A stretch of DNA of 64,000 bases, taken from Candidatus Woesearchaeota archaeon (GTDB lineage: Archaea > Nanobdellota > Nanobdellia > SCGC-AAA011-G17 > JACPNG01). Both the position numbers and the translations under genes were made by a program. The stretch covers positions 4,885 to 68,884 of the forward strand of contig JAFCDT010000002.1 in assembly GCA_017609525.1 (NCBI GenBank), read 5' to 3'. Below, one piece after another: positions 47,933-64,000 of the stretch (positions within the stretch are counted from its first letter, which is position 1; the number at the start of each line of letters is the position of its first letter). The notes beneath the pieces were generated by a model that did no database searches, had not been told where the DNA came from, and saw nothing but the letters and a program-made list of their open reading frames with translations.

Positions 47933-50844
47933 TGAAAGGAGGGATAGCAGTAATCATATTTATTGTACTTATTGGGTTAGTTGGTGCTATCGATGATTTG
48001 TTGGCTTTACAAGGAAAGGTTGATCAAAGCGGAACATTGGTTGAATCAGGAGATATTGTAGTAGAGATATGGGATGATGCGACTGCTGGAAATTTAATTT
48101 ATAATTCTACTTCGGATTTTAATGGCGCAATCCAGGGAGGCTTTTTTGATATTGTACTTGGTAGCGGAAGCAATAGCTTAACTTTGAATTTAAGTCAGAC
48201 TTACTATATGGATATAGCTATTGAAGGACAAGACATTGATTGGGGAGGTGATGAAAGGAGGCAGTTTCAGGCTACTGTCGGAAGGCCTTACTTTGAAGAA
48301 GAGGTTGTTTTGAATGATACACTATATACTAAAGATGGAAATGTTGGAATCAACGATGCAAATCCGGGCCATACTTTAAGTGTTGAGGGAAATTTAAGTT
48401 TGGATTCTTCTGTATATGCAAGTTGTACTGCACTGGAGACCGATTCTGCTGGAGGGATAGTCTGTGGAACTGATGATGCTGGAACTTCATCCACCTCATT
48501 TTGGGCAGGAAGTGCTGTAAATGAAATTTATAATGATACTACTGCTGGAGTTGGTATTGGAACTAATAATCCAAGTTATAAATTAGAGGTAAATTCTGTA
48601 GATAGTGCATTAAATGTAAGTGGGATGTTGTATGTTAATTCAAGTAGTGTTGGTATTGGGACTGACGTTCCTGGCAACCCTATATCTATAAGCGGAGTTA
48701 TTGGGATTACAGACAACATTCTTTTTGATAATGGTGTTGATTTCTTTTGGAAAAATTCTTCTGGGACTTCATGGAGCATAATAACATTGCACACAAATAA
48801 CAATCTTTATTTAACATCGCCCGCAGATGCAGATATGATATTTAGAGTTGGTGGATATACTGAAAGAATGAGAATAGACAGTTCAGGAAATGTAGGTATA
48901 GGAACAACAAGTCCAAATAAAACTCTTACAATATTAGGTAATTTGAGTTTGGCTGGTCCTGAGTATATTAGCTGTACTTCTTTGGAGACTGATGCTGAGG
49001 GAGGAATTAGGTGTGGGACTGATGACACTGGCTCTGGGGGAATAACTAATTGGGACAGCAATATTGCTTTCTTGAATGAAAGTCAAACTTTTGCTGAGAA
49101 TAATACCTTTGATGAGAATGTTGTTATTAATACGAGACTAGGAGTTGGAATCGATAACCCCGATGTTACCATGCATGTAAATTCTTCAGCAATTGGGGGA
49201 ATCAAGATCTCGGGAAATTTTCCTCTTTTACAACTACACGACTTCGCTACTGAGAATAAAATGAATATTGAACTTGGAAGAATTGATGCAGGAATGACTA
49301 TATATGATAATGGTTTTGGTGGTGTTGTCTTCTATATTGAAAATACTACAGGAAATGTTGGAATTGGAACTACTACTGTAAATAAAACATTAACAATATT
49401 GGGTAATTTAAGTTTGGCTGGTCCTGAGTATATTAGCTGTACTTCTTTGGAGACTGATGCTGAAGGAGGGATTAGGTGTGGGGCTGATGCTGGAGAGGGA
49501 GGAGGAGTATTTCTTGGATGGGACTCTAATCTGGTGTGGCATAATCAAAGCTTAAATTCAACAATAGCATTGTGGATTGAAAATGATACAACATTAACAG
49601 ACGCGCAAGTAGATGATTTTGCTTTCAATGATAATTCTTCATTGGATACAAGGTATGTAAGCAGGAGCGATTGGACTACAATAGATAACTATCCTTCTGC
49701 TTGTGCTGGAGGACAGTATGTAAGCGGGATAGGGGATACCTTAACTTGTTCAACACCTTCAGGAGGTACAACCTATTGGACAGGAAGTGGAAATTTAATT
49801 TATAATGATACTACTGCTGGAGTTGGAATTGGTACTAATAATCCAAGTTATAAATTAGAAGTAAATGATGCTTCAACAAGCTCTGTTAATCTTTCTGGAG
49901 CTTTATATGTTGATGGAAGCGAAAGGCTTATTGGTATTGGAACTGATAGTCCGTTTAAGGCACTAACGGTTTTGGGAAAGGCGGCTATTGGAGATTCAAT
50001 TAATAGCTCAAGAGCTTCAAGAGCCTTTAATGTTATTGATACTAATGCCGTAGTTAAAATTATGAGGATTAGTGATGATTCTATACTAGCAGCTCCTGCT
50101 TTTGAATTAATACATGAGAACGCTGATGGAGCAAGAGATGTCTATTGGGATTTCTTTGCTAGTGTTGATGGTATAAGTATGAGAGATAGACTGGCGGGAG
50201 AGCAAAGATCTCTCTTTATAGAGGCAGCCACACCAACCAATACCCTTTATTTATCAAGTGGTGGTAATGTAGGTATAAGAACAGCAAGTCCAAATAAAAC
50301 TCTTACAATATTAGGTAATTTGAGTTTGGCTGGTCCTGAGTATATTAGCTGTACTTCTTTGGAGACTGATGCTGAGGGAGGAATTAGGTGTGGAACAGAT
50401 GCTACTGGGACTTCATCCCCTTCATTTTGGGCAGGAAGTGCTGTAAATGAAATTTACAATGATACTACTGTTGGAGTTGGAATTGGTACTAATAATCCAA
50501 GTTATAAATTAGAAGTAAATTCTGTAGATAATGCTATGAATGTAAGTGGGATGTTGTATGTTAATTCAAGTAGTGTTGGTATTGGTGTTATCAACCCAAG
50601 ATATGAATTAGATTTGGATACAGGCACTATAAGGGCACATAGAGTTGTAGGTTCAAGTGGATTAAACTTAACTACAACAGGAAATGTGCCTGTTGTTATT
50701 TATACATCTGACACAGAAAGAATGAGAATTGATTCTTCTGGAAATGTAGGTATAGGAACTAATAATCCAGATTTTAAGTTAGATGTTATAGGAACAATAA
50801 AAGCTAATGATAGCATTAAAATAGGCACATGGTGGAAAGAGTAA
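47929..50844 (+). CDS. giant secreted tail-fibre-like repeat protein (N-terminal part; may be continuous with 50852-52657)
   Basis: Signal-anchor MMKGGIAVIIFIVLIGLVGA. More than 12 copies of the NVGIGTxxPxxxLxVxG fibre repeat. Three copies of LTILGNLSLAGPEYISCTSLETDAEGGIRCG. Long near-identical nucleotide repeats. Confidence 0.65.
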   Translation: MMKGGIAVIIFIVLIGLVGAIDDLLALQGKVDQSGTLVESGDIVVEIWDDATAGNLIYNSTSDFNGAIQGGFFDIVLGSGSNSLTLNLSQTYYMDIAIEGQDIDWGGDERRQFQATVGRPYFEEEVVLNDTLYTKDGNVGINDANPGHTLSVEGNLSLDSSVYASCTALETDSAGGIVCGTDDAGTSSTSFWAGSAVNEIYNDTTAGVGIGTNNPSYKLEVNSVDSALNVSGMLYVNSSSVGIGTDVPGNPISISGVIGITDNILFDNGVDFFWKNSSGTSWSIITLHTNNNLYLTSPADADMIFRVGGYTERMRIDSSGNVGIGTTSPNKTLTILGNLSLAGPEYISCTSLETDAEGGIRCGTDDTGSGGITNWDSNIAFLNESQTFAENNTFDENVVINTRLGVGIDNPDVTMHVNSSAIGGIKISGNFPLLQLHDFATENKMNIELGRIDAGMTIYDNGFGGVVFYIENTTGNVGIGTTTVNKTLTILGNLSLAGPEYISCTSLETDAEGGIRCGADAGEGGGVFLGWDSNLVWHNQSLNSTIALWIENDTTLTDAQVDDFAFNDNSSLDTRYVSRSDWTTIDNYPSACAGGQYVSGIGDTLTCSTPSGGTTYWTGSGNLIYNDTTAGVGIGTNNPSYKLEVNDASTSSVNLSGALYVDGSERLIGIGTDSPFKALTVLGKAAIGDSINSSRASRAFNVIDTNAVVKIMRISDDSILAAPAFELIHENADGARDVYWDFFASVDGISMRDRLAGEQRSLFIEAATPTNTLYLSSGGNVGIRTASPNKTLTILGNLSLAGPEYISCTSLETDAEGGIRCGTDATGTSSPSFWAGSAVNEIYNDTTVGVGIGTNNPSYKLEVNSVDNAMNVSGMLYVNSSSVGIGVINPRYELDLDTGTIRAHRVVGSSGLNLTTTGNVPVVIYTSDTERMRIDSSGNVGIGTNNPDFKLDVIGTIKANDSIKIGTWWKE
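48500..48660. repeat. intragenic repeat B, copy 1 (copy 2 at 50424-50585; partial copies near 49790 and 51000)
   Basis: TTTTGGGCAGGAAGTGCTGTAAATGAAATTTATAATGATACTACTGCTGGAGTTGG...AATTCTGTAGATAGTGCATTAAATGTAAGTGGGATGTTGTATGTTAATTCAAGTAGTGTTGGTATTGG. Confidence 0.75.
48895..49013. repeat. intragenic near-identical repeat A, copy 1 (other copies 49396-49483 and 50272-50392)
   Basis: GGTATAGGAACAACAAGTCCAAATAAAACTCTTACAATATTAGGTAATTTGAGTTTGGCTGGTCCTGAGTATATTAGCTGTACTTCTTTGGAGACTGATGCTGAGGGAGGAATTAGGTGTGG repeated almost exactly at 50272. Confidence 0.8.
50272..50392. repeat. intragenic repeat A, copy 3
   Basis: Identical by eye to 48895-49013 over about 120 nt. Copy 2 (49396-49483) is more diverged. 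Confidence 0.8.
50424..50585. repeat. intragenic repeat B, copy 2
   Basis: About 160 nt nearly identical to 48500-48660. Confidence 0.75.
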
Positions 50845-50851
50845 TACTGGG

Positions 50852-52657
50852 GTGATGATTGGCTCAAACAATGATTTTTCTGGATGGGGAAATCAGATAG
50901 ATGGAATGGATACAGATAATTCTGGTAGTTATTCTAGTTTATATTTAAATTACAGGGGTGGAAAGAAAATCATTTTAACAAATTCGAGTGATGGTAATGT
51001 AGGTATAGGAACAACAAATCCTAGTTATAAATTAGAAGTAAATTCTGTAGATAGTGCATTAAATGTAAGTGGAAATTTGTATGTTAATTCTAGTAATGTT
51101 GGTATAGGGTTTGACAATCCACAACATACCCTTCATATTGAAAACTCATCTGGAGATCTTGTAAGTGCAGTAAAGGTTACTGATGGAAGAAATAGTGTCT
51201 TTTTACAAGCAAGCAGAAGCGTGGGGGATGGGGGGGTTATAGGCACAAGATTGGTCTTGGATGATAATGGGGCGAGCGGTAAAAGATGGGATATTACTAC
51301 AGGAATTAAAGAGGGGGGTTTAGTATTTAGGAATAATGATGATGGAATTAACGCTTTGACATTAAATTCTTCTGGAGATGTAGGTATAGGAACAACAAGT
51401 CCAGATAGAAATTTAGAAGTATCAGGAACGGGAGCACAACAAATTGAAGTAGAATCTACATCAACCGACGCTGATTTAATTATTGATGCCAATACTGATT
51501 CAGATGCAAGAATTATTTTACAAGAAGCAGGAGTAAATTTAGGTTGGATAAGATTAGATGGAGATGATGGTAATAAAATAAAATTTCAGTATAGCACAAG
51601 TGCTACTGATGCAATGACTATCGACCAAACTGGAAAAATAGGTATAGGAACTGCTTTTCCTGGTGCTAAATTACATGTTTCTGAAACAAATAATTCTGCC
51701 TTTGATGCTGCAGTTGCTATTACTAGAACCGCCAGCGGAGGAGACTCTCTTGCATTCCTCAATATAGGTAGTAATTGGTACTTTGGAAGAGATAGTGCGG
51801 GAAACGCTTTTCAGGCTAGATACGCTAATTGGGACTTGACCGAAGACAGGTGGGAATCTACTTATACTGGTAGTATTGTGGGGCCTGTTTTTACCCAATA
51901 TGAGTACAATGGAGACATAAACTTTAAATCAATGGCTCCTCAATCCTTGACAGAAGGGGATGCTTTAAGTTTCGTAAATGTTATGACTTTGAAAGGGGGA
52001 GGAAATGTGGGTATAGTGACAACAAATCCACAGGCAAGATTAGAGGTTGATGATAATAATTATTGGTATAGTACAAAATATCCTGCGGTTGGTATTAAAA
52101 GCATAAGGCCTGCACTTGCTTTTTATGATGATAATTCAGAAGGTAAAAATGTAACAGTCCTTTATCAAGACCAGCAAACTTTCAAGATAGCTAAAACTGC
52201 ATTTACTACTAATGATTGGGGTTATGATGAGAAAATAGATGCATTAAAAATAGATTCAGACGCGAGCATAACATTTCCATATGTTTATTCTGATATTGTT
52301 GGTGGAACGAATAGAGATTTATATATAGACAATACAGGTTTGATAGGTTATGTTAGTTCTAGTATAAGATATAAAGAAAACATAAAAGATATTGGAAATG
52401 GTTCAGAAAAGCTTTATGATTTAAGACCCGTTTCCTTTAATTATAAAGGAGATAATTCCTCTAGCCTTCAATATGGTTTAATTGCTGAAGAAGTTGAAGA
52501 GGTTATGCCTGAGATAGTAAGCTATGATGAAGAAGGTAATCCAGAAACAGTAAGCTACAGTAAGCTAATAAGCCCAATGCTTAATGAGATCCAACAACTT
52601 AAGGAAGAGAATGAAGAATTAAAAAAGAGGATTGAAGTTTTAGAAAAAAAGATTTAG
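50852..52657 (+). CDS. tail-fibre-like repeat protein with a C-terminal intramolecular chaperone (peptidase S74-like) auto-processing domain
   Basis: NVGIGTTNP fibre repeats, then SSSIRYKENIKDIGNGSEKLYDLRPVSFNYKGDNSSSLQYGLIAEEVEEVMPEIVSYDEEGNPETVSYSKLISPMLNEIQQLKEENEELKKRIEVLEKKI. This matches the phage tail-spike/endosialidase C-terminal chaperone domain (Ser in S-x-R-x-K, LIAQEVEEV-like box, terminal coiled coil). No signal peptide of its own. Confidence 0.7.
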   Translation: MMIGSNNDFSGWGNQIDGMDTDNSGSYSSLYLNYRGGKKIILTNSSDGNVGIGTTNPSYKLEVNSVDSALNVSGNLYVNSSNVGIGFDNPQHTLHIENSSGDLVSAVKVTDGRNSVFLQASRSVGDGGVIGTRLVLDDNGASGKRWDITTGIKEGGLVFRNNDDGINALTLNSSGDVGIGTTSPDRNLEVSGTGAQQIEVESTSTDADLIIDANTDSDARIILQEAGVNLGWIRLDGDDGNKIKFQYSTSATDAMTIDQTGKIGIGTAFPGAKLHVSETNNSAFDAAVAITRTASGGDSLAFLNIGSNWYFGRDSAGNAFQARYANWDLTEDRWESTYTGSIVGPVFTQYEYNGDINFKSMAPQSLTEGDALSFVNVMTLKGGGNVGIVTTNPQARLEVDDNNYWYSTKYPAVGIKSIRPALAFYDDNSEGKNVTVLYQDQQTFKIAKTAFTTNDWGYDEKIDALKIDSDASITFPYVYSDIVGGTNRDLYIDNTGLIGYVSSSIRYKENIKDIGNGSEKLYDLRPVSFNYKGDNSSSLQYGLIAEEVEEVMPEIVSYDEEGNPETVSYSKLISPMLNEIQQLKEENEELKKRIEVLEKKI

Positions 52658-52762
52658 TATGATACTTACATAACAAGTAAAAACATAAGCTTTATATACT
52701 ATTTTACTTACTTTATGAGTAGAAAACCATTATAAGTAAAATTACTTATATAGTGAGTATTA

Positions 52763-53248
52763 ATGGATAAATTAAATAAAAAAGAGGGAATTAGTTCTGA
52801 TAAAGACTTTGAAAAATTAAAAAAAATATTAAGCTCCTTAGAAATAAAGTATAAGAAAACTAAAAAAGAAATTCTCAATTTGATTGAAGAAATGGAAACA
52901 ATGCCTGTTTCAATCTTTAATAACACTAAGCTTTCCATACCAGAATCAATTGTTAAGTATTTTGTTGAAGAAAAAAATTACAAATATAGTAAGATTTCTA
53001 AGATCATCAAACGGGACCAAAGGACTGTTTGGGGCTTTTATAACAAAGCTAGGAAGAAATTTCCTAAAAAGTTGAAAATTAATGATTCTAAATTAATTCC
53101 TGTTTCAATTTTTAGTAAAAAAAGCTTGCTAGAAACTATTGCGATTTATCTTAAGAAAAATTTTGATTTAAGTTACCATGATGTTGCTGTTTTACTTAAT
53201 AGAGATGATAGAACGATTTGGACTGTTTGTAATAGGAAGAAAAAATGA
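52763..53248 (+). CDS. tandem helix-turn-helix DNA-binding protein (two sigma-r4/LuxR-like HTH units), candidate locus regulator
   Basis: Internal duplication: IPESIVKYFVEEKNYKYSKISKIIKRDQRTVWGFYNKARKKF and IPVSIFSKKSLLETIAIYLKKNFDLSYHDVAVLLNRDDRTIWTVCNRKKK. 4-nt overlap with the 1070-aa gene. Confidence 0.5.
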   Translation: MDKLNKKEGISSDKDFEKLKKILSSLEIKYKKTKKEILNLIEEMETMPVSIFNNTKLSIPESIVKYFVEEKNYKYSKISKIIKRDQRTVWGFYNKARKKFPKKLKINDSKLIPVSIFSKKSLLETIAIYLKKNFDLSYHDVAVLLNRDDRTIWTVCNRKKK

Positions 53249-56200
53249 ACGAAAGTATCAAGGCAATTATGATTAGTATAATGGTTTTCGTAGTGTTAAG
53301 TGGGCTAATTTATGGTGCCTTTATCTTTACGAGTTATACGGGTTTTGCTGTTAAGGAAATAGTAAGCATTCCTTATGAAGAAGGATTTGAAAATGGAACC
53401 ATAAAGGTAAGTTTAAATGAAACTATTTGGGAGTTTGAAGTTCAAGAACTTGTTAAAGATAAAGATATCATTTTGAATTTAACTAGTCTGGAAACTAATG
53501 AATATGGAGAATTATATATCGACATCATTGTTAATGGAACTGTTGTTGAAAGTAAAAAAGTGATTATTGAAGGAAAGGAAGAAAAACCTTTTGTTACAGA
53601 AGAAGTTAATGAGACAGTTGAAGAAAAATTTTCTGAAGCTAATAATAGTGCTTTTGGAGAAATAAATGTGTCTGTTGAGGAAATTAACAAAACTATTGGG
53701 CTGGTTAATAAGACAGTTGAAGAATCTGATAATGAGATTGTAAATCAAACAGAACCACTAAGAAAGATCAATAAAACCTTAGAAATAAATGAAACGGTTG
53801 AAGAAGTTAATATTACTCTACCAAAAAATATTACTGAAAATTTGAATGAATCTAAGGTAGTAGATAAAGTTTCTATTGTAGAAGAGACAGAAGAAGTAAT
53901 ACAACCTTTAGTTGTGATAAATCAGCCAGTTAGGTGGGTTAAAAAGGTTAGATTAGAGAATTATTCAAATAGTCTTACTGTTGAGGTTCCTAAAGAAGCA
54001 AAGAACATTAGTGTTAAAAAAATTGAAGATGGAAAGGGAAGAGCAATTGAAGAGAAAAAAATCAAGGTTAAAGAAAAAGGAGAAATTAAAGACTTAGAAG
54101 AATTTAATACAATAACTGCGCAGGCGGTCGCTGTTGGTTCTGGCAAACCTTATTTAAGAAACTTTTTCGACTTGATTTCGAAATTTATTAATTCTTTACT
54201 CAAAAAACCCGCAGTAACTGGATTAGTTACTGGTGAAGATAAAGGAACTAAAGAGGTTATTATTGGAGAGTCTGTTAAGGAAGTAGAAATCAAGTATGAA
54301 ATTCCTGGTCCAGGTGTAATAGAATCAGACAAGGCAGATGGTAAGATCATAACAATATTTTCTGAGATTCACTATGAGAATATATTAGCATATACAGAAG
54401 TAGAAGAAACGGATCCAGAGGGTATAAAACTTTACTGGAAACAAAATGGTTCTAGTATTTTGGTTGAAAATGTGGATTACCTAGATGAAAATCAAAATGG
54501 ATTGATAGATAAAATCCAGTGGATTGTTCCACATTTAAGCAATCAGACATATGAGATTGATTTAATTGTTTTAAATGTTCAGAGTTATCCTTATGTTGGG
54601 GGCAATTGGACAGTAAAATTTAACACTACCGGAATAGCAAATTTAACGATAAGTGCATTTAATGGTACTACTTTTGAAGATTATCATAATGATAGCGTGA
54701 TTCATGATTTAGAATTTTTAGAGTTAAGATGTGGCTCTGAATTAATTGCTAATAATCTTACTGCTAATAATAGTTTATTTGTTTCAGATTATAGTTGTAC
54801 AAGTACTAGCTTTGAAACAAGTAAAGTTTTAACACCAGGTGACCACTATATTAAATTTGAGTTTGGACCAATAACTAAATATGCAAAAAACCTTGCTGGT
54901 GAATTTGGAGGGTTGGCTGGAGGAGGAAATGCTAGTGGTACAATGAATTTAATTACCGGTGCCTTTGGTTTTACTGGTTCTAACGAAACAACTGGATCAT
55001 ATACCACTATGCTGCATGGACTACTGAGTGTAGGAAAAAACATAACTTCTGGCGTTTATACATTAGGTTTAGGTTATATTTACATGCTTGATATTGTTCA
55101 GAAGGTTTTTGTTAACCTTGTTAGCCCCGCAGAAGGGGAAACAATTGCTACTGCTACTTTTATTTATATTCCAAACGCTGATGAAATACACAGTTGTAGT
55201 TTGTATGGTAATTGGACCACTGGTTGGCATGCCAATCAAACTGATTATTCTATAGCATTAAGTTCCACTAACCAGTTTACACTAGGTGAATTAGAAGAAG
55301 GCAGGTTTCAGTGGAATGTTATGTGCAACAATAGCCAGGGGGATTTTTTTGCAGAAAACAATTATACTTTTGTACTAAACCGTGTACCAAGTGTGCCAGA
55401 CTTGAATGAACCTTTAAATAACAGCATGTGGAATAGTAGCATTCCTGAACTTAATTGGTCCAACAGCACAGATACAACAGGAGATGATATATTTTATTAT
55501 TTGGAAATTGATGATTCAATAGCTTTTGATAGTGTGGATTATGCAAATAGTACAATAAAAGAAAATGTAAATACAACATCGGATCTTCCTAGCGGACTAG
55601 TTGCAGGAAACTATTGGTGGAGGGTTTTAGCTTATGATGGCAACGCAAACTCTTCATGGTCAGAGGTAAGAAATTTATCAATAAGATTTAATGATGCTCC
55701 TAGTGTTCCTGAATTATTTTTGCCATATAACGATACACAAATAACAGATAGGACTCCTACTTTTAGCTGGAGCAATTCTACTGATCCAGATGGAGATACT
55801 ATCACATATCACATTCAAATAGATGGAGTTATAGACTTTTCAAGTCCTGAGGTGGATGGTTTTGATGTAGGGGGCATTGCTGAAACTGCAAATACAACAA
55901 ACTGGACTGCAACATCTGATTTGCAACAATTAGACACAGAGTACTTTTGGAGGGTTAGAGCGTATGATGGAATTGCTTATAGCAATTGGTCTGAAATAAG
56001 GAATTTTTCGATTGCCAGTACAGTGATTATCACTCTTCCAACAGACAGCATAAACTTTACTGTTGCTAATCCAGGGGATAGTGACGACACTAGTGATGAT
56101 TCCCCTACTCCGATTGTAATAAGAAATAGCGGAAATACTGGTGCTGATGTTAATATCAGTTTGGCCTCTGGGAGCACTGGTCTTTGGGCAAGCAAAGTAA

Positions 56201-56457
56201 GTCCTACGAGTTATTTTCAATATAAAATAGATAATAAGACAGGAGAGGAGGGGGCTTTTAACTGGTCGGATTCTATTACTGGATGGACCGATGTTGATGT
56301 TGCTAACTCAAGTTACAAAATTAGAAATCTTAACTATAGTGATTCTACTGATGAAGCAGAGTTAGACATTAAAATTATTGTGCCAAATGATGAACCTTCT
56401 GGGGAAAAGTCGGCAAGTTTGGTTATAACGGGGGCGATTACAAGTGAAATCCCATAA
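53245..56457 (+). CDS. 1070-aa signal-anchored glycoprotein with many N-x-S/T sequons, tandem repeats of about 95 aa (FSWSNSTDPDGD...YFWRVRAYDG) and a conserved C-terminal EPSGEK...TG motif
   Basis: N-terminal TM MISIMVFVVLSGLIYGAFIF. More than 50 N-x-S/T sequons. Three clear repeats (NWSNSTDTTGDDIFYYLEID...YWWRVLAYDG; FSWSNSTDPDGDTITYHIQID...YFWRVRAYDG; plus a degenerate copy). C-terminus IVPNDEPSGEKSASLVITGAITSEIP. Confidence 0.65.
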   Translation: MNESIKAIMISIMVFVVLSGLIYGAFIFTSYTGFAVKEIVSIPYEEGFENGTIKVSLNETIWEFEVQELVKDKDIILNLTSLETNEYGELYIDIIVNGTVVESKKVIIEGKEEKPFVTEEVNETVEEKFSEANNSAFGEINVSVEEINKTIGLVNKTVEESDNEIVNQTEPLRKINKTLEINETVEEVNITLPKNITENLNESKVVDKVSIVEETEEVIQPLVVINQPVRWVKKVRLENYSNSLTVEVPKEAKNISVKKIEDGKGRAIEEKKIKVKEKGEIKDLEEFNTITAQAVAVGSGKPYLRNFFDLISKFINSLLKKPAVTGLVTGEDKGTKEVIIGESVKEVEIKYEIPGPGVIESDKADGKIITIFSEIHYENILAYTEVEETDPEGIKLYWKQNGSSILVENVDYLDENQNGLIDKIQWIVPHLSNQTYEIDLIVLNVQSYPYVGGNWTVKFNTTGIANLTISAFNGTTFEDYHNDSVIHDLEFLELRCGSELIANNLTANNSLFVSDYSCTSTSFETSKVLTPGDHYIKFEFGPITKYAKNLAGEFGGLAGGGNASGTMNLITGAFGFTGSNETTGSYTTMLHGLLSVGKNITSGVYTLGLGYIYMLDIVQKVFVNLVSPAEGETIATATFIYIPNADEIHSCSLYGNWTTGWHANQTDYSIALSSTNQFTLGELEEGRFQWNVMCNNSQGDFFAENNYTFVLNRVPSVPDLNEPLNNSMWNSSIPELNWSNSTDTTGDDIFYYLEIDDSIAFDSVDYANSTIKENVNTTSDLPSGLVAGNYWWRVLAYDGNANSSWSEVRNLSIRFNDAPSVPELFLPYNDTQITDRTPTFSWSNSTDPDGDTITYHIQIDGVIDFSSPEVDGFDVGGIAETANTTNWTATSDLQQLDTEYFWRVRAYDGIAYSNWSEIRNFSIASTVIITLPTDSINFTVANPGDSDDTSDDSPTPIVIRNSGNTGADVNISLASGSTGLWASKVSPTSYFQYKIDNKTGEEGAFNWSDSITGWTDVDVANSSYKIRNLNYSDSTDEAELDIKIIVPNDEPSGEKSASLVITGAITSEIP

Positions 56458-56926
56458 ATGGTTTGTGATCCTGAATATCGCGTTTGTGATTTTAATAGTT
56501 GGAACAATCTTTTATATCACTCCAAGGGGGCCGGAAGGAAAAATCTACGATCGGCGTCCCTTGTTTAGTTGGACTGGTTATGCAACTAAATTGATAATCG
56601 ATGATAATCCGGATTTTTCCAGTCCGCAAGTCATTGACCTAAAAGGAAGAGATTATCAATTTAAAGAAAATCTTGATTTGGGGGATTATTTCTGGAAATT
56701 AAAGGGGCTTTATGAAACCAAACCCAAGAAATTTAATTTAGAGTCTGAGGTGGCAATAAAACTGTACAAGACTGAATCTTTGAATCTAGAAAACGATGGC
56801 AATACTCGACTGAATGTTACTATTGAAGAACATGATTCTGGGGTGACTGGTCAGATTGTTCTTGATTTGGGGGAAATTGCTGTTGTGAAAGAAAATTCGG
56901 ACATTAAAGCAAAGCAAGATGAATAA
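56444..56926 (+). CDS. single-domain membrane-anchored paralog carrying one copy of the FSW...YFWK repeat
   Basis: TM FVILNIAFVILIVGTIFYI, then RPLFSWTGYATKLIIDDNPDFSSPQVIDL...LGDYFWKLKG. Confidence 0.5.
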   Translation: MKSHKWFVILNIAFVILIVGTIFYITPRGPEGKIYDRRPLFSWTGYATKLIIDDNPDFSSPQVIDLKGRDYQFKENLDLGDYFWKLKGLYETKPKKFNLESEVAIKLYKTESLNLENDGNTRLNVTIEEHDSGVTGQIVLDLGEIAVVKENSDIKAKQDE

Positions 56927-58118
56927 GAAATTATGGTTGGGAATTGTAGCAATTTTGATAGTTTCAAGTATCAATGTTTTTGCAATAGGAATTAGTCCAG
57001 GTAAAACAATTTTAGATTTTTCGCCAAACACCCAACAAGACATTGTATTCAGGGTGCTAAATAATGAAAAAAAAGAGATGGATGTTTTGTTATATGTGGG
57101 AGAAAGTGAATTAAGTGATATTGTTACCCTCTATGATTCTATTATTAGCTTTAAATCTGAAGAAGAAAGTAAAGAATTCAGATACACTGTGAATTTTCCT
57201 GACAAAATTGACACTCCCGGAGATCATGAAATACAAATTATTGCTTTAGAGATTCCCAAAGGTACAAAAGGAAATAATTTTGTTGGTGCTACTGCTGCTG
57301 TTGCAACCATCCTAAAAGTCAGGGTCCCATATCCTGGAAAATATGCGAAAATTGAATTAGCGGTTTCTGATGCTAAAGTCGGAGAAGAAATGACTTTTGT
57401 TGTTCCTGTCTGGAATCTGGGAACAGATGATATTATTAATGCCCAAGCAAGTATTGATATCTTGGGGCCTACTAATGAAAAAATTGCTACGCTTAGTACA
57501 GAAAAAAAAGGGATTAAATCCAAAAGCAAGAGCGAATTAGTTGCAAAATGGGAAGCAGATACAAATGCCGGCAAGTATTTTGCTGTGGCTACTTTAACAT
57601 ATGATGGAAAAACTGCAAGGGCTGAAAAAATTTTTGCCTTAGGTGATCTGTTTATTGATATTATTGATATTAATGTTAAAAACTTTAATTTGGGTGAAGT
57701 AGCTAAATTTAATATTTTAGTTGAAAATAAATGGAATGATTTAATCACAAATATTGTTCCAGAAATTAAGATTAGTGATAAGAATGGCAATGAAGTTGCT
57801 GTATTTAAAGGAGCAGGAGCGGATGTAGATGCTTTAAGTAAAGCAGAATTAAATGCATATTGGGATACTGAAGGAGTTAAAGAAGGAGTTTATGATGGTA
57901 AAGCAATTTTGCATTATTCTGGAAAGACTACAGAAAAACAACTTAAAACAGATATTAGTTTAAATGGAATTAAGGTTTCATTTTTGGGACAGACCGCTCA
58001 AGTTGTTAGGGGAGGAGCAGGTGTTGGAAGGAACTCTGTATTAGTGATTTTAGTTATGATCTTAATTATTATAAATGTGGGTTGGTTTATATATATCAAA
58101 AGGATGAAAAGAGGATAG
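56919..58118 (+). CDS. CARDB-like surface protein with signal peptide and C-terminal TM plus KRMKRG tail (paralog of 59008-60129)
   Basis: Signal WLGIVAILIVSSINVFA. Repeated Ig-like units starting PYPGKYAKIELAVSDAKVGEEMTFVVPVWNLG. C-terminal VLVILVMILIIINVGWFIYIKRMKRG. Confidence 0.55.
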   Translation: MNKKLWLGIVAILIVSSINVFAIGISPGKTILDFSPNTQQDIVFRVLNNEKKEMDVLLYVGESELSDIVTLYDSIISFKSEEESKEFRYTVNFPDKIDTPGDHEIQIIALEIPKGTKGNNFVGATAAVATILKVRVPYPGKYAKIELAVSDAKVGEEMTFVVPVWNLGTDDIINAQASIDILGPTNEKIATLSTEKKGIKSKSKSELVAKWEADTNAGKYFAVATLTYDGKTARAEKIFALGDLFIDIIDINVKNFNLGEVAKFNILVENKWNDLITNIVPEIKISDKNGNEVAVFKGAGADVDALSKAELNAYWDTEGVKEGVYDGKAILHYSGKTTEKQLKTDISLNGIKVSFLGQTAQVVRGGAGVGRNSVLVILVMILIIINVGWFIYIKRMKRG

Positions 58119-58156
58119 AAAAACTTAAAAATATTGAATATCAGATAGGATACAGA

Positions 58157-58369
58157 ATGGTCAAAAAAAGGGGCAAAAAAAAGGTTTCTAAAAATTTGTT
58201 AGCCATACTTTTAGTTATTGCAATTTTGTTATCTGTTGTAGGGACCTATATGGCTATTTACAATGCCAATGTTGTAAGGGTAATTGAGATTGAGCCCGCT
58301 TCCTTGGGAAAGGTCGGGGTTTATGTTAACAATCCAGAACTCCCCGCAGGAGATGAAGGTGGCGGATAA
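58157..58369 (+). CDS. small N-terminally anchored protein (pilin-like candidate)
   Basis: MVKKRGKKKVSKNLLAILLVIAILLSVVGTYMAI: basic N-terminus plus one hydrophobic helix, 70 aa. The six-frame ORF 58082-58369 extends it upstream of the likely start. Confidence 0.35.
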   Translation: MVKKRGKKKVSKNLLAILLVIAILLSVVGTYMAIYNANVVRVIEIEPASLGKVGVYVNNPELPAGDEGGG

Positions 58370-58979
58370 AAAAGAAGTTTCCAATGGGGTCTTAGTAGCT
58401 TTAGCTGGAATTGCCATAATTGTTTCTTTAGTAGGCATACTTACAATGATTGGTAAGCCAATGCCAATTCTTGGTGCTGTTGTGGGTACTGTAAATGTTA
58501 CCATAAATGAAAGTGTTGGTATAAGTTTGGTTACTGAAAGTATTAACTTTACAACTTCAGGTATAAACGATGTGAAAGACACGACGACTGCGACAGATGT
58601 TCAGGGTTGTAGTGCTGCTCCTTGTGGATTCAATATCACAAACGATGGGAGCATCAATATCAACATTAGTATAGATGTAACCTCGGATATGTTTGTAAGC
58701 TCTAGTACAAATGCTAGTTCATTTATGTGTAATGCTACTAACTTTGATTCAAATAGTAATGCCTCTGCACAAGGGTGGACAGGAGATTGCACATACGCAG
58801 AATGGGTAGACTGCAGAGATGGTCAGGCAGTTGAAACTGGCAATTGTTTTGCTGATATTAATTTTACAGATGGTGCTGATACTGTTTACTTAGAGGTACA
58901 AATCGCGGTTCCAGATGCAGAACCTTCTGGGGATAAGCAGGCATCAATTACATTTACTGGAACTAGTGCTGGAACTTAA
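58353..58979 (+). CDS. N-terminally anchored secreted protein with sequons, a Cys pattern and the C-terminal EPSGDK...TG motif (pilin-like or adhesin subunit candidate)
   Basis: Start at ATG 58353 (MKVADKKEVSNGVLVALAGIAIIVSLVG). Ectodomain with 6 Cys and multiple N-x-T/S. C-terminus IAVPDAEPSGDKQASITFTGTSAGT is shared with the 1070-aa protein. Confidence 0.5.
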   Translation: MKVADKKEVSNGVLVALAGIAIIVSLVGILTMIGKPMPILGAVVGTVNVTINESVGISLVTESINFTTSGINDVKDTTTATDVQGCSAAPCGFNITNDGSININISIDVTSDMFVSSSTNASSFMCNATNFDSNSNASAQGWTGDCTYAEWVDCRDGQAVETGNCFADINFTDGADTVYLEVQIAVPDAEPSGDKQASITFTGTSAGT

Positions 58980-59007
58980 TTATTTAGAAAGTTTTATATA
59001 AAAAGTT

Positions 59008-60129
59008 TTGTTTAAAGTTCTTATGAAAAGGGGTTTTTTATTTGTGTTATTCTTTTTGTTTTTGGCTAATTCTGTTTTTGCTATTCTAATCACTCCTGCT
59101 AGTTTGGAGATGGAATTTGCTCCGAACAAAGAGTATGATTGTAGTTTTATTGTTAGAGTAAATAAACAAACCGACTTACTGGTATATGCCCGTGGAGAGC
59201 TAAATCAAAGTGTGAGTTTTTCTAAGAATAAACTAAAAGCTGTTCCTGGTGAATGGAATAGTGTGGGGTGCAAAATAAAAATGCCTCAGGATATGAAACC
59301 AGGGTTAAACAAAAATTTTGTTGGAGTTGTAGAAGATACTAGTGGCAAGGGGGTTGTTGGAGGTGTGACTGGCGTGGAGGTCACATTATTTATAAGAAAA
59401 CCTTACCCTGGGAAATACTTAGAATTAGAGAAATTTGAAGCCAATAATGCAGAAATAAATGAAAAAGTTAATTTTTTAATTGAGGTTATTAATAGGGGAA
59501 AAGAAAAAATAAACAATGCCTTTGCATTGATAGAAGTGTATGATAAAGATAAAAAAATTGATCAGGTTGAATCAAATCATATTGAGATTGTTAGTAATGG
59601 TGTTTTTAAAGCAGAATGGAAAACAAGTGTGGCGGGAAGATATAAAGCTTTGGCAAGAATAAATTATGATGGCTCTATTTTAGAAGAAAAAAAGAATTTT
59701 AATGTAGGAGAGCGTTTAGCTAAGATTCTAAATATTTCTGATGCAAAGGTAAAAAAAGGAGACATTGCTAAATTTGATATCAATATTCAAAGTTATTGGA
59801 ATGAAATAATAAAAGATGTCTACTTAGAGTTAAAGGTGGTTGGGCAAGAGGTGAATTCTAGGACAGAGTCCATATCCTTGGGTCCTTGGGACAGTAGGAC
59901 CATTACTGGTTTCTTGGAGACTTCTTCGCTAGAAGAAGGGGAATATGAAGTTGATGTTACTTTAAATTATGATGATAAATATTCAGAAGCTAAAACGAGT
60001 TTGGTGGTAACAAAGGGGTTTAGTCTCTCTGTGACTACAATTGTTCTAATCGTAATTATAGCTATCCTTATCTTGCTGGTTATTATTAATATTGTTATGT
60101 TTAAGAAAAAATGGAAAAAAAGAAAGTAA
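59008..60129 (+). CDS. CARDB-like surface protein, paralog of 56919-58118, with C-terminal TM plus KKKWKKRK
   Basis: Signal FLFVLFFLFLANSVFA. PYPGKYLELEKFEANNAEINEKVNFLIEVINRG unit. C-terminal TIVLIVIIAILILLVIINIVMFKKKWKKRK. Confidence 0.55.
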   Translation: MFKVLMKRGFLFVLFFLFLANSVFAILITPASLEMEFAPNKEYDCSFIVRVNKQTDLLVYARGELNQSVSFSKNKLKAVPGEWNSVGCKIKMPQDMKPGLNKNFVGVVEDTSGKGVVGGVTGVEVTLFIRKPYPGKYLELEKFEANNAEINEKVNFLIEVINRGKEKINNAFALIEVYDKDKKIDQVESNHIEIVSNGVFKAEWKTSVAGRYKALARINYDGSILEEKKNFNVGERLAKILNISDAKVKKGDIAKFDINIQSYWNEIIKDVYLELKVVGQEVNSRTESISLGPWDSRTITGFLETSSLEEGEYEVDVTLNYDDKYSEAKTSLVVTKGFSLSVTTIVLIVIIAILILLVIINIVMFKKKWKKRK

Positions 60130-60524
60130 TCTTCTTATTTAGTGGAATTGCTATTGTCATCTTTTTCCTATTTATCTTTTTTTATAATTTCTTTTTTGTT
60201 CTGGGCGTGAAAAACATTGATTTTTCTATTAAAGTAGGAGATACAATTGGATTAAATGTTGATACTGACAAATTGTATTTTGGTACTGTTCCAAGAGGGG
60301 GAACAGCTGATAGGGGCATCCTAGTAAAAAACGAAGAACATTCCTTGGTTAAAACTAATATAAAAGTGCAGAGCGATATTAAAGACTGGCTGTATGTTAA
60401 TAACAATAATTTCTTTTTAAAAAAAGATGAGAAAAAAGATATTAATTTTAAGGTTAAGGTGCCTTTGGATGCTGAATATGGGGAATATGATGGACAGATA
60501 ATCCTTATTTTTACCCGGTTCTAG
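60111..60524 (+). CDS. small signal-anchored beta-rich protein
   Basis: TM VIFLFSGIAIVIFFLFIFFYNFFFVL then a 100-aa domain. 19-nt overlap with the preceding gene. Confidence 0.45.
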   Translation: MEKKKVIFLFSGIAIVIFFLFIFFYNFFFVLGVKNIDFSIKVGDTIGLNVDTDKLYFGTVPRGGTADRGILVKNEEHSLVKTNIKVQSDIKDWLYVNNNNFFLKKDEKKDINFKVKVPLDAEYGEYDGQIILIFTRF

Positions 60525-60563
60525 AAATCTATATAAATAACCATACTCTAATTTTATCTAACA

Positions 60564-62321
60564 ATGAAAGAGGTTCCAGATAAGTTACTGTTATTTTTAT
60601 ACATAACTTTTATTTTCACATTTCTAATTGGTTTGATATTAATTGTTACTAATGCTCCTCTATTTTTAAGTATAATCACTGGAAAAGTTGCAAGTACTGG
60701 TTTGGTTGGTTTATGTGTGGGTGTTACTCCTGCCATAAGCAGCATAGGGTATCAGGAAGGTTTTGTTGATACAGAATTTTATTATGATGTTGAAGCTTCT
60801 GCCGGAGATGATCCTATAAGTTTTAGTGATGATAGTGATTTGTTTGTTATTGATGCAGACAGCGGGGAAATCAATTTTACTCCAAGTTCTACAGATAAAG
60901 GCAACTATTCGATAACTATCACAGTAACCAACACTATTTGTGCTGACGGGGGTCCAACTGCTGAGGAAGTGTTTACACTTGAAATTAAGTCTGAACCACC
61001 TGTTTTGGATCCCATAGGAAATCAGACACTTACAGAAGATGTGGCTTATTACTATGATGTCAATGCTTCTGATCCTGACCCCGGAGATAATGCAAGCTTA
61101 GTATTTTTAGATGACACTGGTTTGTTTGATATTAATGAAAGCACTGGAATTATTAGTTTTACTCCTGTAAATGATGATGTGGGGGTTCATGAAGTTAGAA
61201 TAACTGTTACTGATCCTAGCGGAGCTTCTGATTTCGAAGACCTTAATTTTACTGTGGAGAATGTAAATGATGCTCCTGTATTAGATGAGATCCCTAATTT
61301 TACTGTTGCTGATGCAATAAGTGAAGATGTTGAATTCTACTATGATGTAAATGCAACTGACATAGATGTTGGTGATATTTTGAGGTATACTGATAATACT
61401 CCGCTATTTGTGATTGGTGAAACTTTTGGAATAATACAGTGGACACCAAGCAATGCGCAAATTGGTAATTATTCAATAACGATTTATGTTGATGATGGTG
61501 AAGCATTAGACTCTCAGGTGTTTAATGTTGAAGTGCTGGCAGTTGATGATCGTCCAATCTTAGAACCAATTGGTGCCCAGACTGCTGATGTAAATGTTAG
61601 TTTCTTTTTGGATGTTGAAGCTTCTGATGAAGAAGATGGGGATGAGTCAACTGGAAATCTTACATTTAGTGACAATACTACTTTGTTTAATATTAGTTCT
61701 AGCAATGGACAAATAAACTTTACTCCTACAGATAGTGATATTGGCACATATAATATAAATATAAGTGTTAATGATTCTACTGGCCAGGTTAGTTCTGAAG
61801 TGATATCTTTTACTGTGGCAGTAATTAATGATGCTCCAACTATTGATTCTTATGTTCCAACTGATTTAACTCCTTCAGTAGATGAAGGTGATACTTTATT
61901 CTTCAATATAACAATGTCTGATCCTGATGGGTCTGATCCTGATGGAACAACCCCGAGTGTCCAGTGGTATTTAGATGCGGCCGCTATAAGTGGAGAAACC
62001 AACATGCATTATAATTATAATCCTAATTTTGACTCACAAGGGACACATAATATGACTGTAATCATTACAGATGGATCTTTATATGACTCTGTGGAATGGA
62101 TAGTAACTGTAAATAATGTGGTACAGGTTGATAAAGGTCCTTCTGGTGGAGGGGGTGGTGGAGGAAGCAAGGGTTGTAGTGAAAGGTGGAATTGTAGTGA
62201 TTGGAGTCCTTGTCAGTATCCTGGAATACAAATCAGAACATGCAGTGATATGAAAAATTGTGGTACAACCCGATTTAAGCCTGGCGAGAGAAAACGGTGT
62301 GAATTTTTGATGGAATATTAA
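60564..62321 (+). CDS. cadherin-like repeat surface protein (N-terminal 585 aa; frame-broken from its CGG-x-C/TM C-terminus)
   Basis: Signal-anchor, at least five cadherin-like units with YYYDVxAxD...NDAP(V/T)(L/I) boundaries, a Gly7 linker, and a Cys-rich CSERWNCSDWSPCQYPGIQIRTCSDMKNCG knot. Stops 2 codons after a T5 run. Confidence 0.6.
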   Translation: MKEVPDKLLLFLYITFIFTFLIGLILIVTNAPLFLSIITGKVASTGLVGLCVGVTPAISSIGYQEGFVDTEFYYDVEASAGDDPISFSDDSDLFVIDADSGEINFTPSSTDKGNYSITITVTNTICADGGPTAEEVFTLEIKSEPPVLDPIGNQTLTEDVAYYYDVNASDPDPGDNASLVFLDDTGLFDINESTGIISFTPVNDDVGVHEVRITVTDPSGASDFEDLNFTVENVNDAPVLDEIPNFTVADAISEDVEFYYDVNATDIDVGDILRYTDNTPLFVIGETFGIIQWTPSNAQIGNYSITIYVDDGEALDSQVFNVEVLAVDDRPILEPIGAQTADVNVSFFLDVEASDEEDGDESTGNLTFSDNTTLFNISSSNGQINFTPTDSDIGTYNINISVNDSTGQVSSEVISFTVAVINDAPTIDSYVPTDLTPSVDEGDTLFFNITMSDPDGSDPDGTTPSVQWYLDAAAISGETNMHYNYNPNFDSQGTHNMTVIITDGSLYDSVEWIVTVNNVVQVDKGPSGGGGGGGSKGCSERWNCSDWSPCQYPGIQIRTCSDMKNCGTTRFKPGERKRCEFLMEY

Positions 62322-62335
62322 ACCAAGATGAAATT

Positions 62336-62833
62336 TTGGTAGATTGTGGTGGAGTTTGTAAAGCTTGTCCTACTTGTGATGATGGAATTAAAAATCAAGG
62401 AGAGGTGGAGATAGATTGCGGTGGACCATGTCCTGGTTGTCCTAAAACAGAAAAACCCTCTAGATTGGTTACAATTTTATGTGGAAATGGTCAAATAGAC
62501 AGAGTTGGTGAGATATTTACATGCTTCAAGGATAGTTGGTATATCTGGTTAATTGTCTTGGTTGTCATTTTATTACTCTTATTAAGAAAAAGAATAAAGA
62601 AAGCTAAGAAATCTTTAGAATTTACAAACCTAGATAGAGAGAGGATTGGTAGGATAAAAAGATTGATTAAGGTTGCTGATCTGGCCTTGAGAGAAAAGCA
62701 AATCAGTAAACTAAAAGTTACTTGCGATAGAATTGAGATTCTATACAATGGTTTACAAAGTGAGAGAAGCAAGAGAAAAGTCTATAGAAAGATTAAGAAA
62801 CTTAATAATAGGATAAATAATTTTAAATCTTAG
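62336..62833 (+). CDS. C-terminal module: tandem DCGG-x-C cysteine knot, TM and a coiled-coil cytoplasmic tail. Very likely the continuation of 60564-62321 after a single-nucleotide frame error
   Basis: The reading frame is open from 62303 (IFDGILNQDEILVDCGGVCKACPTCDDGIKNQGEVEIDCGGPCPGCPK...) with no start codon until the TTG at 62336. A +1 shift in TTTTT (62304-62308) fuses it to the upstream ORF. TM IWLIVLVVILLLLL plus a basic tail. Confidence 0.5.
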   Translation: MVDCGGVCKACPTCDDGIKNQGEVEIDCGGPCPGCPKTEKPSRLVTILCGNGQIDRVGEIFTCFKDSWYIWLIVLVVILLLLLRKRIKKAKKSLEFTNLDRERIGRIKRLIKVADLALREKQISKLKVTCDRIEILYNGLQSERSKRKVYRKIKKLNNRINNFKS

Positions 62834-62906
62834 AAATCTTTATAAGTTAGTTATACTACATTTTTCTCAGTTATTTTATTTGTTATACTACAAAAAGAGG
62901 GATTTG

Positions 62907-63380
62907 ATGGTTCATAAGAGGTATATTAAAAAAGGGGGCAAAGTGTATGGTCCTTATTTCTATAAAACAGTAAGAGATAAGGACGGAAGCGTTAAAAATA
63001 TATATCTTGGAAGCGTTGAAAAAGAAAAAAAAAGTGTAGTACAACCAAAATATCTCTATGTTTTTTTAAGTTTATTCTTAATGGTTTTAGTTTTAGCTGG
63101 TTTTTATTTTAGTGAATATACAGGAAATGTTGTAAGGTTAGGAGAAATCTCTTTACCTGATTTTAAAAGCCAAAATTTAAGCAGGGGTGATTTTTTTTCT
63201 GCTAAAGTTGTTTCTGATTTGAGAGCGGCTTATTTTACAGATGATAGTGATCTCTTTAACATTAGTTCAGATGGATTTATTGAGTTTAGAGCGGAAGAAA
63301 GAGGAGAATATCCTGTGGCCATAATTGCCAAATCTGAAGAAGGATTTGAGTATCAGATTGTTAAATTTTTAATAAAATGA
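62907..63380 (+). CDS. small signal-anchored protein with a cadherin-like N-terminal unit
   Basis: Likely start MVHKRYIKKGGKVYGPYFY at 62907. TM YLYVFLSLFLMVLVLAGFYF. YFTDDSDLFNISSDGFIEF resembles the start of the neighbouring cadherin-like units. Confidence 0.4.
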   Translation: MVHKRYIKKGGKVYGPYFYKTVRDKDGSVKNIYLGSVEKEKKSVVQPKYLYVFLSLFLMVLVLAGFYFSEYTGNVVRLGEISLPDFKSQNLSRGDFFSAKVVSDLRAAYFTDDSDLFNISSDGFIEFRAEERGEYPVAIIAKSEEGFEYQIVKFLIK

Positions 63381-64000
63381 AAAAAACGTGGTTTATACTC
63401 ATTTTTGTATTTTTAATAAGTATTGTAATTGCTACTAATCCTGTTTTTGATGAAGGTTTGCCTCCAGATGGAGTTACTTTGACTGAAGATGTTGCTGTTT
63501 ATTATGATATTAATGCAAGCGATGCAGAAGATGGTGATGAAAGTTCTGGGAATCTCACTTATAGCGATGATACTGATTTGTTTGATATTAATGAAACAAC
63601 CGGGATTATTAGTTTTACTCCTGACAATAACAGTGTGGGGGTTTATAACTCAACATACAATAATTCTGTGGCTATAATTGTGAAAGATTCCACTGAAGAG
63701 GCCACTATAGACATCTGGACATTTGAGATTGTGGCTGTTAATGATGCACCGAACATAACCACTGTTAGTTTAGCTGATGCTACAGAAGATAGTGCTTATA
63801 CTGCCACTATTGAGGCGACTGATGAAGAAGGAAATACTCCTCTTGGGTTTGAAGCAAATGAAACTTTTGTGAATATGACAAATCTAACAGCTACTAGCGG
63901 GATAATAGCTTTCACGCCCAATAACACCCAGGTTGGAACATGGAATATTAATATTACTGTAACCGATAGTAATGGGAGCGACTCTAAGAGTGGGAGCAAG
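63377..64000 (+). CDS. cadherin-like repeat surface protein (5' part; continues beyond window)
   Basis: ATG 63377 overlaps the previous stop. Signal MKKTWFILIFVFLISIVIA. Units VYYDINASDAEDGDESSGNLTYSDDTDLFDINETTGIISFTP...VAVNDAPNITTV... The frame is open to the window end. Confidence 0.55.
   Translation, partial: MKKTWFILIFVFLISIVIATNPVFDEGLPPDGVTLTEDVAVYYDINASDAEDGDESSGNLTYSDDTDLFDINETTGIISFTPDNNSVGVYNSTYNNSVAIIVKDSTEEATIDIWTFEIVAVNDAPNITTVSLADATEDSAYTATIEATDEEGNTPLGFEANETFVNMTNLTATSGIIAFTPNNTQVGTWNINITVTDSNGSDSKSGSK

Follow-up and report, generated by a model that had tools for sequence, protein, structure and literature searches.

The 64,000-nt stretch analysed here (the window; contig JAFCDT010000002.1, positions 4,885 to 68,884, from a Candidatus Woesearchaeota archaeon) carries at positions 60564-62833 of its forward strand a surface protein gene with a split reading frame. 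The finding is real in the contig and ordinary in kind: the gene is that of a DPANN adhesin with immunoglobulin (Ig)-like repeats, and the copy in the window is 19 nt shorter than an intact allele of the same population. The intact allele encodes a continuous protein of 762 amino acids (aa), into which the two proteins called by annotation (585 and 165 aa) should be merged.

The upstream open reading frame (ORF) ends with KRCEFLMEY* at a TAA stop codon (62319-62321). The second frame, that of 62303, opens directly past a TGA codon (62300-62302), begins with the translation IFDGILNQDEILVDCGGVCKAC..., and continues for 176 codons to a TAG codon (62831-62833). The two open frames overlap only at 62303-62318 (16 nt), and a TTTTT run (T5, 62304-62308) is located inside this interval. 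The first-pass annotation had described this stop, the open frame from 62303 and the T5 run; our reading of the window and the ORF listing confirm all three, and the frame indeed runs to 62833. The chance of a 176-codon open frame in DNA of 33% GC is approximately 2e-7 to 3e-6, as estimated from base composition, and a comparison of 62541-62833 with a related strain (L003, described below) in the frame of the tail revealed 11 synonymous and 5 non-synonymous changes. Because of this low probability and the 11:5 synonymous bias, the downstream frame is a real coding sequence, whose split goes beyond chance. The bias also means that the tail frame was translated through most of the divergence between the window and L003.

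The relatives have the gene in one piece. A search with the C-terminal part retrieved P0002, and a cluster look-up led to P0034 (at least 709 aa, cut only by the end of its contig), whose ORF spans the Ig repeats, the Cys-rich part, the transmembrane (TM) segment and the tail. The same full architecture was found in P0284 (763 aa), P0300 (658 aa) and P0281 (966 aa), which are among the best matches of the stalk profile. P0284 (NCBI MDD5332012.1, "Ig-like domain-containing protein" of a Candidatus Nanoarchaeia archaeon) is a positional orthologue, intact in three independent assemblies with the gene order of the window. The comparison of orthologues proposed in the first-pass annotation thus revealed a fused gene rather than two genes, in line with its view that one gene is broken by a frame error. 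The two ORFs are a single gene.

The intact allele was found in a contig from another sample (L009; JGI 3300033148, Ga0366832_1118822), identified by an exact look-up of the downstream 157-aa neighbour protein. It matches window positions 62193-64000 with 0 mismatches and contains 19 additional nt, ACAGTTGTGGCAAGTTGTT, between 62306 and 62307. L009 reads across the site in a single, continuous frame (...KRCEFTVVASCFDGILNQ..., also ...KRCEFTVVASCFDG... and ...KRCEFTVVASCFDGILNQDEILVDCGG...). When 60564-62306, the 19 nt and 62307-62833 are joined, they form a 762-aa ORF with 16 Cys residues in the stalk, and the restored protein reads CEFTVVASCFDG at the junction, not CEFFDG. In DNA alignments with a sister species (L001 and L002), the window is likewise short by 19 nt, not by 1. 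The peptide that it lacks relative to this species includes the first Cys of the first of two Cys-rich units (DCGG units, described below), and the 19 nt are part of the codons for TVVASC. The junction in the window is ...GGTGTGAATTT/TTGATGGAATATT... (GAATTT/TTGATGG at the join), and that of the intact allele is ...GGTGTGAATTT/ACAGTTGTGGCAAGTTGTT/TTGATGG... (GAATTT/ACAGTTG at the left join). Because L009 has the 19 nt inserted at 62306/62307, the T5 run marks a deletion junction; it is a product of the join, not a shortened homopolymer.

Alternative explanations of the split frame

The first-pass annotation had proposed that one extra T in the run restores the protein. In this version, a T6 run (GAATTTTTTGATGG) would have lost one base by sequencing or replication slippage, and the true product, of 756 aa, would contain ...KRCEFFDGILNQ.... 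One T inserted into T5 does restore the frame, and T5 is located within the only 16-nt interval where a shift rescues the ORF. However, the same population and the sister species each have 19 more bases, not one. The product of the one-T repair would have 15 Cys residues in the stalk, an odd count, and would lack the first Cys of DCGG unit 1. This residue is conserved in 62 of 62 related cassettes, all of which contain both linker Cys residues of the C-x-[YF]-x3-5-C pattern. We therefore consider the single-T loss highly improbable. A homopolymer sequencing error was rejected because the length difference is 19 nt, not 1, and the T5 run is formed by the junction. The right repair is a 19-nt insertion, whereas the one-base fix gives a wrong protein without a structural Cys. 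Of the type-I membrane protein of roughly 750 aa that had been predicted, the type-I layout stands, and the 756-aa form has to be replaced by one of 762 aa.

Two further explanations can be given hardly any credence. In the first, the frames are joined at A-TTT-TTG, either by programmed -1 ribosomal frameshifting or by transcriptional slippage; the shift needed is indeed -1, and a short T run is present. However, A TTT TTG does not conform to the X XXY YYZ pattern of a slippery heptamer, shuffled sequences fold as well as the 92 nt downstream (z = 0.13), and the orthologues and the sister allele read straight through with no T run at this position. The shifted product would also lack the invariant Cys. 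In the absence of a slippery heptamer, a downstream structure and conservation in orthologues, we rejected this mechanism. Two genuine genes, one for a secreted 585-aa Ig-repeat protein and the other for a 165-aa membrane protein starting at TTG 62336, would agree with the gene callers, which list P0035 and P0001 separately. Against this, the downstream ORF (176 codons) has no Met codon, promoter or ribosome-binding context, its Cys-rich N-terminal part has no signal peptide, every relative has the fused architecture, and the split falls inside a DCGG unit. The two-gene reading was rejected on the fused orthologues and the missing start signals. A fixed pseudogene was also rejected because an intact allele with 0 mismatches exists and the downstream frame has 11 synonymous versus 5 non-synonymous changes.

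The intact gene exists in the population whether the 19-nt gap is real or an artefact. We lean towards a real deletion allele, formed at a 2-nt microhomology and coexisting with the intact allele. A second contig of sample 3300033148 (L005) is essentially identical to window positions 51647-62306. Its end, at 62306, coincides with the last base that the deleted and intact versions share, and its terminal 114 nt recur as the first 114 nt of L009. An assembly graph in which a 19-nt indel bubble was left unresolved would produce such an end point and overlap. This picture, in which the sample contains reads for both junctions, favours a segregating deletion allele.

Several observations weigh against this reading. 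The contigs of sample 3300033148 carry many other 18-55-nt indels relative to near-identical assemblies, with almost no single-nucleotide polymorphisms (SNPs). L005 differs from the window by a tandem duplication of 55 nt and by deletions of 29 and 43 nt; L009 differs from the window by a 25-nt tandem duplication and from L003 by additional gaps in the next adhesin gene (L009 ~2388 and ~2829). L001 and L002 differ by 44- and 53-nt deletions (L001 9907 and 11376). The sites in the window are 59288-59342, ~59527-59555, 61931-61973, 62306/62307 and ~62860. All of these indels lie inside adhesin genes, as exact tandem duplications and 18-55-nt deletions, and every coding one breaks the frame except an 18-nt gap in the next adhesin gene; the 7.7 kb upstream of the cluster (51647-59342) is 100% identical. 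Because none of the indels exceeds 55 nt, and 55 is a common assembler k-mer size, an assembler origin is plausible for this class and hence perhaps for the 19-nt gap.

The gap might accordingly have been introduced during assembly, for instance where a stretch of low coverage was closed on an overlap of 2-3 nt, with all cells containing the intact 762-aa gene; the nature and function proposed for the protein would be unchanged. In favour of this, near-identical assemblies differ by many indels of up to 55 nt, including the exact 55-nt tandem duplication, and by almost no SNPs; the intact sequence is known at 100% flank identity, relatives always retain the missing Cys, and purifying selection acts on the downstream frame. 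On the other hand, no other broken gene was found in the compared regions of the rest of the 64-kb window, and L005, an independent contig, stops at the exact last shared base, as it should when both junctions are represented in the reads; this end point is hard to reconcile with an artefact of another assembly. We regard the artefact as a serious possibility that falls short of an even chance.

A broader proposal can be made. The 19-nt deletion would be one of many real 18-55-nt, microhomology-flanked, frame-breaking indels, segregating in DPANN populations and concentrated in the adhesin cluster (~59.3-64 kb here, and the orthologous genes of the sister species), and they would switch adhesins on and off at the population level, with hosts or viruses perhaps exerting the pressure. 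As a separate part of this proposal, two large undescribed extracellular families, the DCGG unit and a six-Cys Trp-rich module, would be common to DPANN archaea and Bacteroidota. Taken as a whole, we consider this proposal unlikely. The clustered indels, if not assembler artefacts, would be a pointer to indel-driven switching of adhesins. We also observed that Ig domain 5 contains a perfect tandem duplication of 15 nt and that the 43-nt deletion of L005 begins right past the first copy of this duplication.

Architecture of the protein and its Cys-rich stalk

The features of the gene, all on the forward strand (+), are as follows.

60564-62321, +: upstream ORF in the contig, 585 aa, ending four codons past the lesion
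60564-60683, +: putative N-terminal signal peptide or signal anchor, MKEVPDKLLLFLYITFIFTFLIGLILIVTNAPLFLSIITG (hydrophobic; Kyte-Doolittle windows >1.8, residues 4-42)
60717-62120, +: five tandem Ig-like domains (Pfam), with acidic xNDAPx/DDRP boundaries between them
60717-60995, +: Ig domain D1
60996-61271, +: Ig domain D2
61272-61550, +: Ig domain D3
61551-61832, +: Ig domain D4
61833-62120, +: Ig domain D5
61916-61945, +: perfect 15-nt tandem duplication, GTCTGATCCTGATGG x2 (SDPDG-SDPDG; a single DPDG in relatives)
62121-62174, +: Gly-rich hinge, VQVDKGPSGGGGGGGSKG (also in P0034, P0284, P0300 and P0268)
62175-62300, +: six-Cys Trp-rich module, C-x3-W-x-C-x2-W-S-x-C-...-G-x-Q-x-R-x-C-x-D-x3-C-G-T-x3-K-P-x5-C
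62304-62308, +: T5 run, deletion junction (TTT of the left flank and TT of the right flank, 2-nt microhomology)
62306-62374, +: DCGG unit 1, FDGILNQDEILVDCGGVCKACPT (first Cys missing in the contig)
62375-62446, +: DCGG unit 2, CDDGIKNQGEVEIDCGGPCPGCPK (complete, 24 aa, 4 Cys)
62447-62536, +: juxtamembrane segment with a Cys pair, LCGNGQIDRVGEIFTC (conserved in P0034, P0284 and P0281)
62537-62584, +: TM helix, WYIWLIVLVVILLLLL, followed by the basic stop-transfer sequence RKRIKKAKK (hydropathy; AlphaFold2 (AF2) helix)
62585-62833, +: cytoplasmic helical tail, 82 aa and TAG, with the motif ...KVTCDRIEILYNGL...VYRKIKKLNNRI

In Pfam searches, four to five Ig-like repeats were matched over residues ~52-519. 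He_PIG (1.3e-23; 83.7 bits against a cut-off of 24; 4 stretches) and Big_9 (2.2e-20; 73.8 bits against 23.6; 5 stretches) matched as tandem copies above their gathering cut-offs, followed by PKD_4 (4.4e-9) and Cadherin_5 (7.9e-7). The match to Cadherin itself (PF00028) was marginal (6.7e-7; 30.1 bits against 28.8), and the tandem-95 and CshA-type repeats of NCBIfam remained below their cut-offs. These Ig repeats of the cadherin-like/He_PIG type agree with the earlier description of the N-terminal part as cadherin-like. NVNDAP, INDAP and VDDRP are located at the domain boundaries, the place of the acidic, DxNDN-like Ca-binding linker motifs of cadherin domains. Hydropathy indicated hydrophobic segments at residues ~4-42 and ~651-680, and the type-I layout fits these two segments. 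The AF2 helix at the TM segment comes from a first model based on a 3-sequence alignment (pLDDT 39.8), which was useless overall. The tail motif is common to P0284, P0300, P0191 and P0268. The coiled coil that had been suggested for this tail is unproven; what is seen is a helical stretch carrying a conserved LY motif.

The Cys-rich C-terminal 220 residues showed no Pfam or NCBIfam match at E<=1. The intact stalk (16 Cys) consists of the six-Cys module, a C-x-F-x5-C linker, two 4-Cys DCGG units and the Cys pair. The 24-aa consensus of the DCGG unit is C-x-D-G-[IV]-x-N-Q-x-E-x-x-[VI]-D-C-G-G-x-C-x-x-C-x-x, in which C1, D3, G4, E10, D14, C15, G16, G17, C19 and C22 are invariant over 62 distinct units (alignment A1). 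Because it has only four invariant Cys residues (C1, C15, C19 and C22) and a knot needs at least three disulfides, one of them passing through the ring that the other two form, a DCGG unit cannot form a cystine knot, and the designation of the tandem as a Cys knot has to be dropped. The A1 profile gave no PDB sequence match at E<=10, and proteins with 3-5 DCGG units gave no Pfam or NCBIfam match on that region (E<=10 or E<=1). When an alignment of the stalk (A2) was used for an exhaustive profile search, 6,845 cluster representatives were matched at E<=1e-3 (2,407 at <=1e-10 and 275 at <=1e-30). Carriers of DCGG units include DPANN proteins and Bacteroidota proteins of the type IX secretion system (T9SS), and the copy number rises to about 20, with up to 23 matched stretches per protein.

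The consensus of the six-Cys module (alignment A5, 93 modules) is C-x-E-x-W-x-C-x-x-W-S-x-C-...-G-x-Q-T-R-x-C-x-D-x-N-x-C-G-T-x3-K-P-x3-Q-x-C, with 8 invariant columns in the alignment. The module precedes the DCGG units as a single copy in 62 collected proteins, and elsewhere it occurs in up to 10 copies without DCGG units. It gave no Pfam, NCBIfam or PDB sequence match. In an AF2 model based on a 59-sequence alignment, the pLDDT of this module was 85-95. A literature search, which included literal DCGG motif strings, yielded nothing relevant. The earlier statement that the Cys-rich part belongs to no nameable family agrees with the absence of Pfam, NCBIfam and PDB matches. The six-Cys module and the DCGG unit are widespread, uncurated small modules, and with thousands of clusters and no counterpart in the database copies searched, they are easy candidates for new families. 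Together with the unexplained cluster of medium-sized indels in adhesin genes, they are the remaining interest of this locus.

From this architecture, a probable mode of action can be proposed for the 762-aa protein, taken to be a type-I membrane adhesin from a Nanoarchaeota/Woesearchaeota-like (DPANN) archaeon. A Sec signal peptide would export the protein. The five Ca-cadherin-like/He_PIG Ig domains would constitute a distal binding rod, with acidic NDAP-type boundaries as in Ca-stiffened cadherin-like arrays, and the Gly7 stretch would serve as a hinge. The stalk, with 16 Cys residues and up to eight disulfides, may act as a compact, protease-resistant spacer keeping the rod off the membrane. 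The single TM helix and RKRIKKAKK would form the anchor, and the 82-aa cytoplasmic helical tail (...Y..I..LY..L....VY.KI..L) may bind a cytoplasmic partner or drive oligomerisation; its motif also occurs in the tails of relatives and in a 777-aa membrane protein (42930-45263, -). In the deletion allele, translation would end at residue 585, without the DCGG units, anchor and tail, giving either a null or a shed form. What the analysis shows is the single gene, its 19-nt difference and intact allele, the domain content, conservation and synteny; we infer the adhesion role, the disulfide pairing, any calcium binding and the presence of the deletion in reads. The proposal is weakened by these inferences and by the AF2 model of the DCGG units, which is of only moderate confidence (pLDDT 66-79).

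Genomic setting and related loci

The window also encodes RFC, IleRS, MCM, topoisomerase VI A/B, MetRS, ribosomal proteins, SecY and primase. This SecY shares 70-75% identity with proteins named Nanoarchaeota, Woesearchaeota or Nanoarchaeia archaeon, in support of the DPANN attribution made in the first-pass annotation. A search for related loci found one distant locus (L004) in metagenome contigs and none in genome contigs, in collections that lacked the window's own genome and the species of L001 and L002.

L003 (NCBI JBQSKD010000083.1, GCA_054387635.1) is 97.9% identical to 62541-64000 without gaps, and it is included in a metagenome-assembled genome (MAG) labelled Candidatus Heimdallarchaeaceae archaeon. 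An Asgard origin, as this label would imply, was ruled out because SecY places the window in DPANN; L003 is probably a mis-binned contig in an Asgard MAG. The divergence between the window and L003 is 5.5% (16/293) in the adhesin tail (62541-62833) and 0.6% (3/474) in the next gene (62907-63377). The adhesin tail is a local hot spot of divergence, which may have arisen from recombination between strains.

The gene lies within a syntenic cluster of surface protein genes (~47.9-64 kb), which probably mediates attachment to host cells. Because of this location, a role in the attachment of a presumably episymbiotic archaeon to its host or a substrate fits; host attachment is the central unknown of DPANN episymbionts. 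In the same cluster, the 971-aa (47929-50841, +) and 601-aa (50852-52654, +) proteins contain many ...NVGIGTT.P...L.V.G... repeats, and the latter has a C-terminal Peptidase_S74 "chaperone of endosialidase" domain (E 3.5e-15). Peptidase_S74 is a self-cleaving module of phage tail fibres. The two are a tail-fibre-like pair of surface proteins in a DPANN genome.

A helical motif resembling that of the tail (A.KLY..A/I..LY..LP....K......L..LYN.I) was observed past the TM segment in several unrelated-looking membrane proteins of the lineage. Its sites are the 44441 region of the ORF at 42930-45263 (-) and the tails of P0191, P0268, P0281 and P0300; P0281 also has weak TPR matches. This recurring cytoplasmic motif may be a common tail-docking element.

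Three observations concern other genes. A free-standing LAGLIDADG_3 protein (15665-16744, -) adjoins the topoisomerase VI genes. The gene past the big adhesin in L003 (4265-5326) has Intein_splicing and LAGLIDADG matches, and L006 has a HerA-like (DUF87) gene at that position. A 631-aa protein (17535-19430, -), putatively exported as well, is rich in Cys at both ends and weakly resembles Glyco_hydro_42 in its centre (E 1e-7).

Comparison with known systems

The six-Cys module resembles the thrombospondin type 1 repeat (TSR; TSP_1, PF00090) in its W-x-x-W, W-S-x-C and G-x-Q-x-R-x-C appearance and in its length of ~45 aa. Its weak Foldseek matches in PDB were mostly TSR-containing proteins (C6, C8/C9 complexes, MIC2, Unc5, TSP-1 and Sema5A), none of them significant (best E 0.54). 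It differs from TSRs in Cys spacing, in two extra N-terminal Cys residues and in having no C-S-x-T-C. Membership in TSP_1 at the level of sequence was rejected because there was no Pfam match at E<=1 and hhalign of A5 against verified TSRs gave 1.6%, with only WSxC aligned.

In the DCGG unit, C, [DN]G, E and DCG follow one another as they do in the N-terminus of the ADAM/reprolysin disintegrin (C-G-N-G-x-x-E-x-G-E-E-C-D-C-G) and a related Myxococcus Cys-rich repeat. Its spacing is off by one residue, and it is an arrayed unit of 24 aa with 4 Cys. In the bacterial protein P0161, a DCGG array and then a T9SS sorting tail come after a reprolysin M12B metalloprotease, an order that parallels the reprolysin-disintegrin order of ADAMs; in another bacterial protein, P0159, DCGG units and a T9SS tail occur together with a purple acid phosphatase and GEVED domains. 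Homology of the DCGG unit to disintegrins is unsupported (hhalign probability 3.7%), making the likeness a lead and not a membership. In Pfam and NCBIfam, the profiles of disintegrin, Myxococcus Cys-rich repeats, LDL-A and Notch LNR did not match the proteins with 3-5 DCGG units.

The window protein follows the same overall logic as the eukaryotic type-I adhesion receptors (classical cadherins and protocadherins), with a signal peptide, cadherin-like domains in tandem, a region next to the membrane, a single TM helix and a tail in the cytoplasm. Homology is not shown further than the Ig/cadherin-like fold class; in its tail there is no similarity to catenin-binding sequences, and the modules of the stalk are prokaryotic. 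Closer counterparts are the prokaryotic Ig-/cadherin-like adhesins (He_PIG PF05345, Big_9 PF17963, Cadherin_5 PF17892 and PKD_4 PF18911), with which it shares five tandem beta-sandwich repeats with NDAP-type boundaries and a predicted surface location, its gene lying among other surface protein genes. It has no sortase, PGF-CTERM, T9SS or S-layer anchor, and its stalk modules are uncurated. In contrast to these adhesins, the window protein would be anchored in a eukaryote-style type-I manner, through its Cys-rich stalk, a single TM helix and a tail in the cytoplasm.

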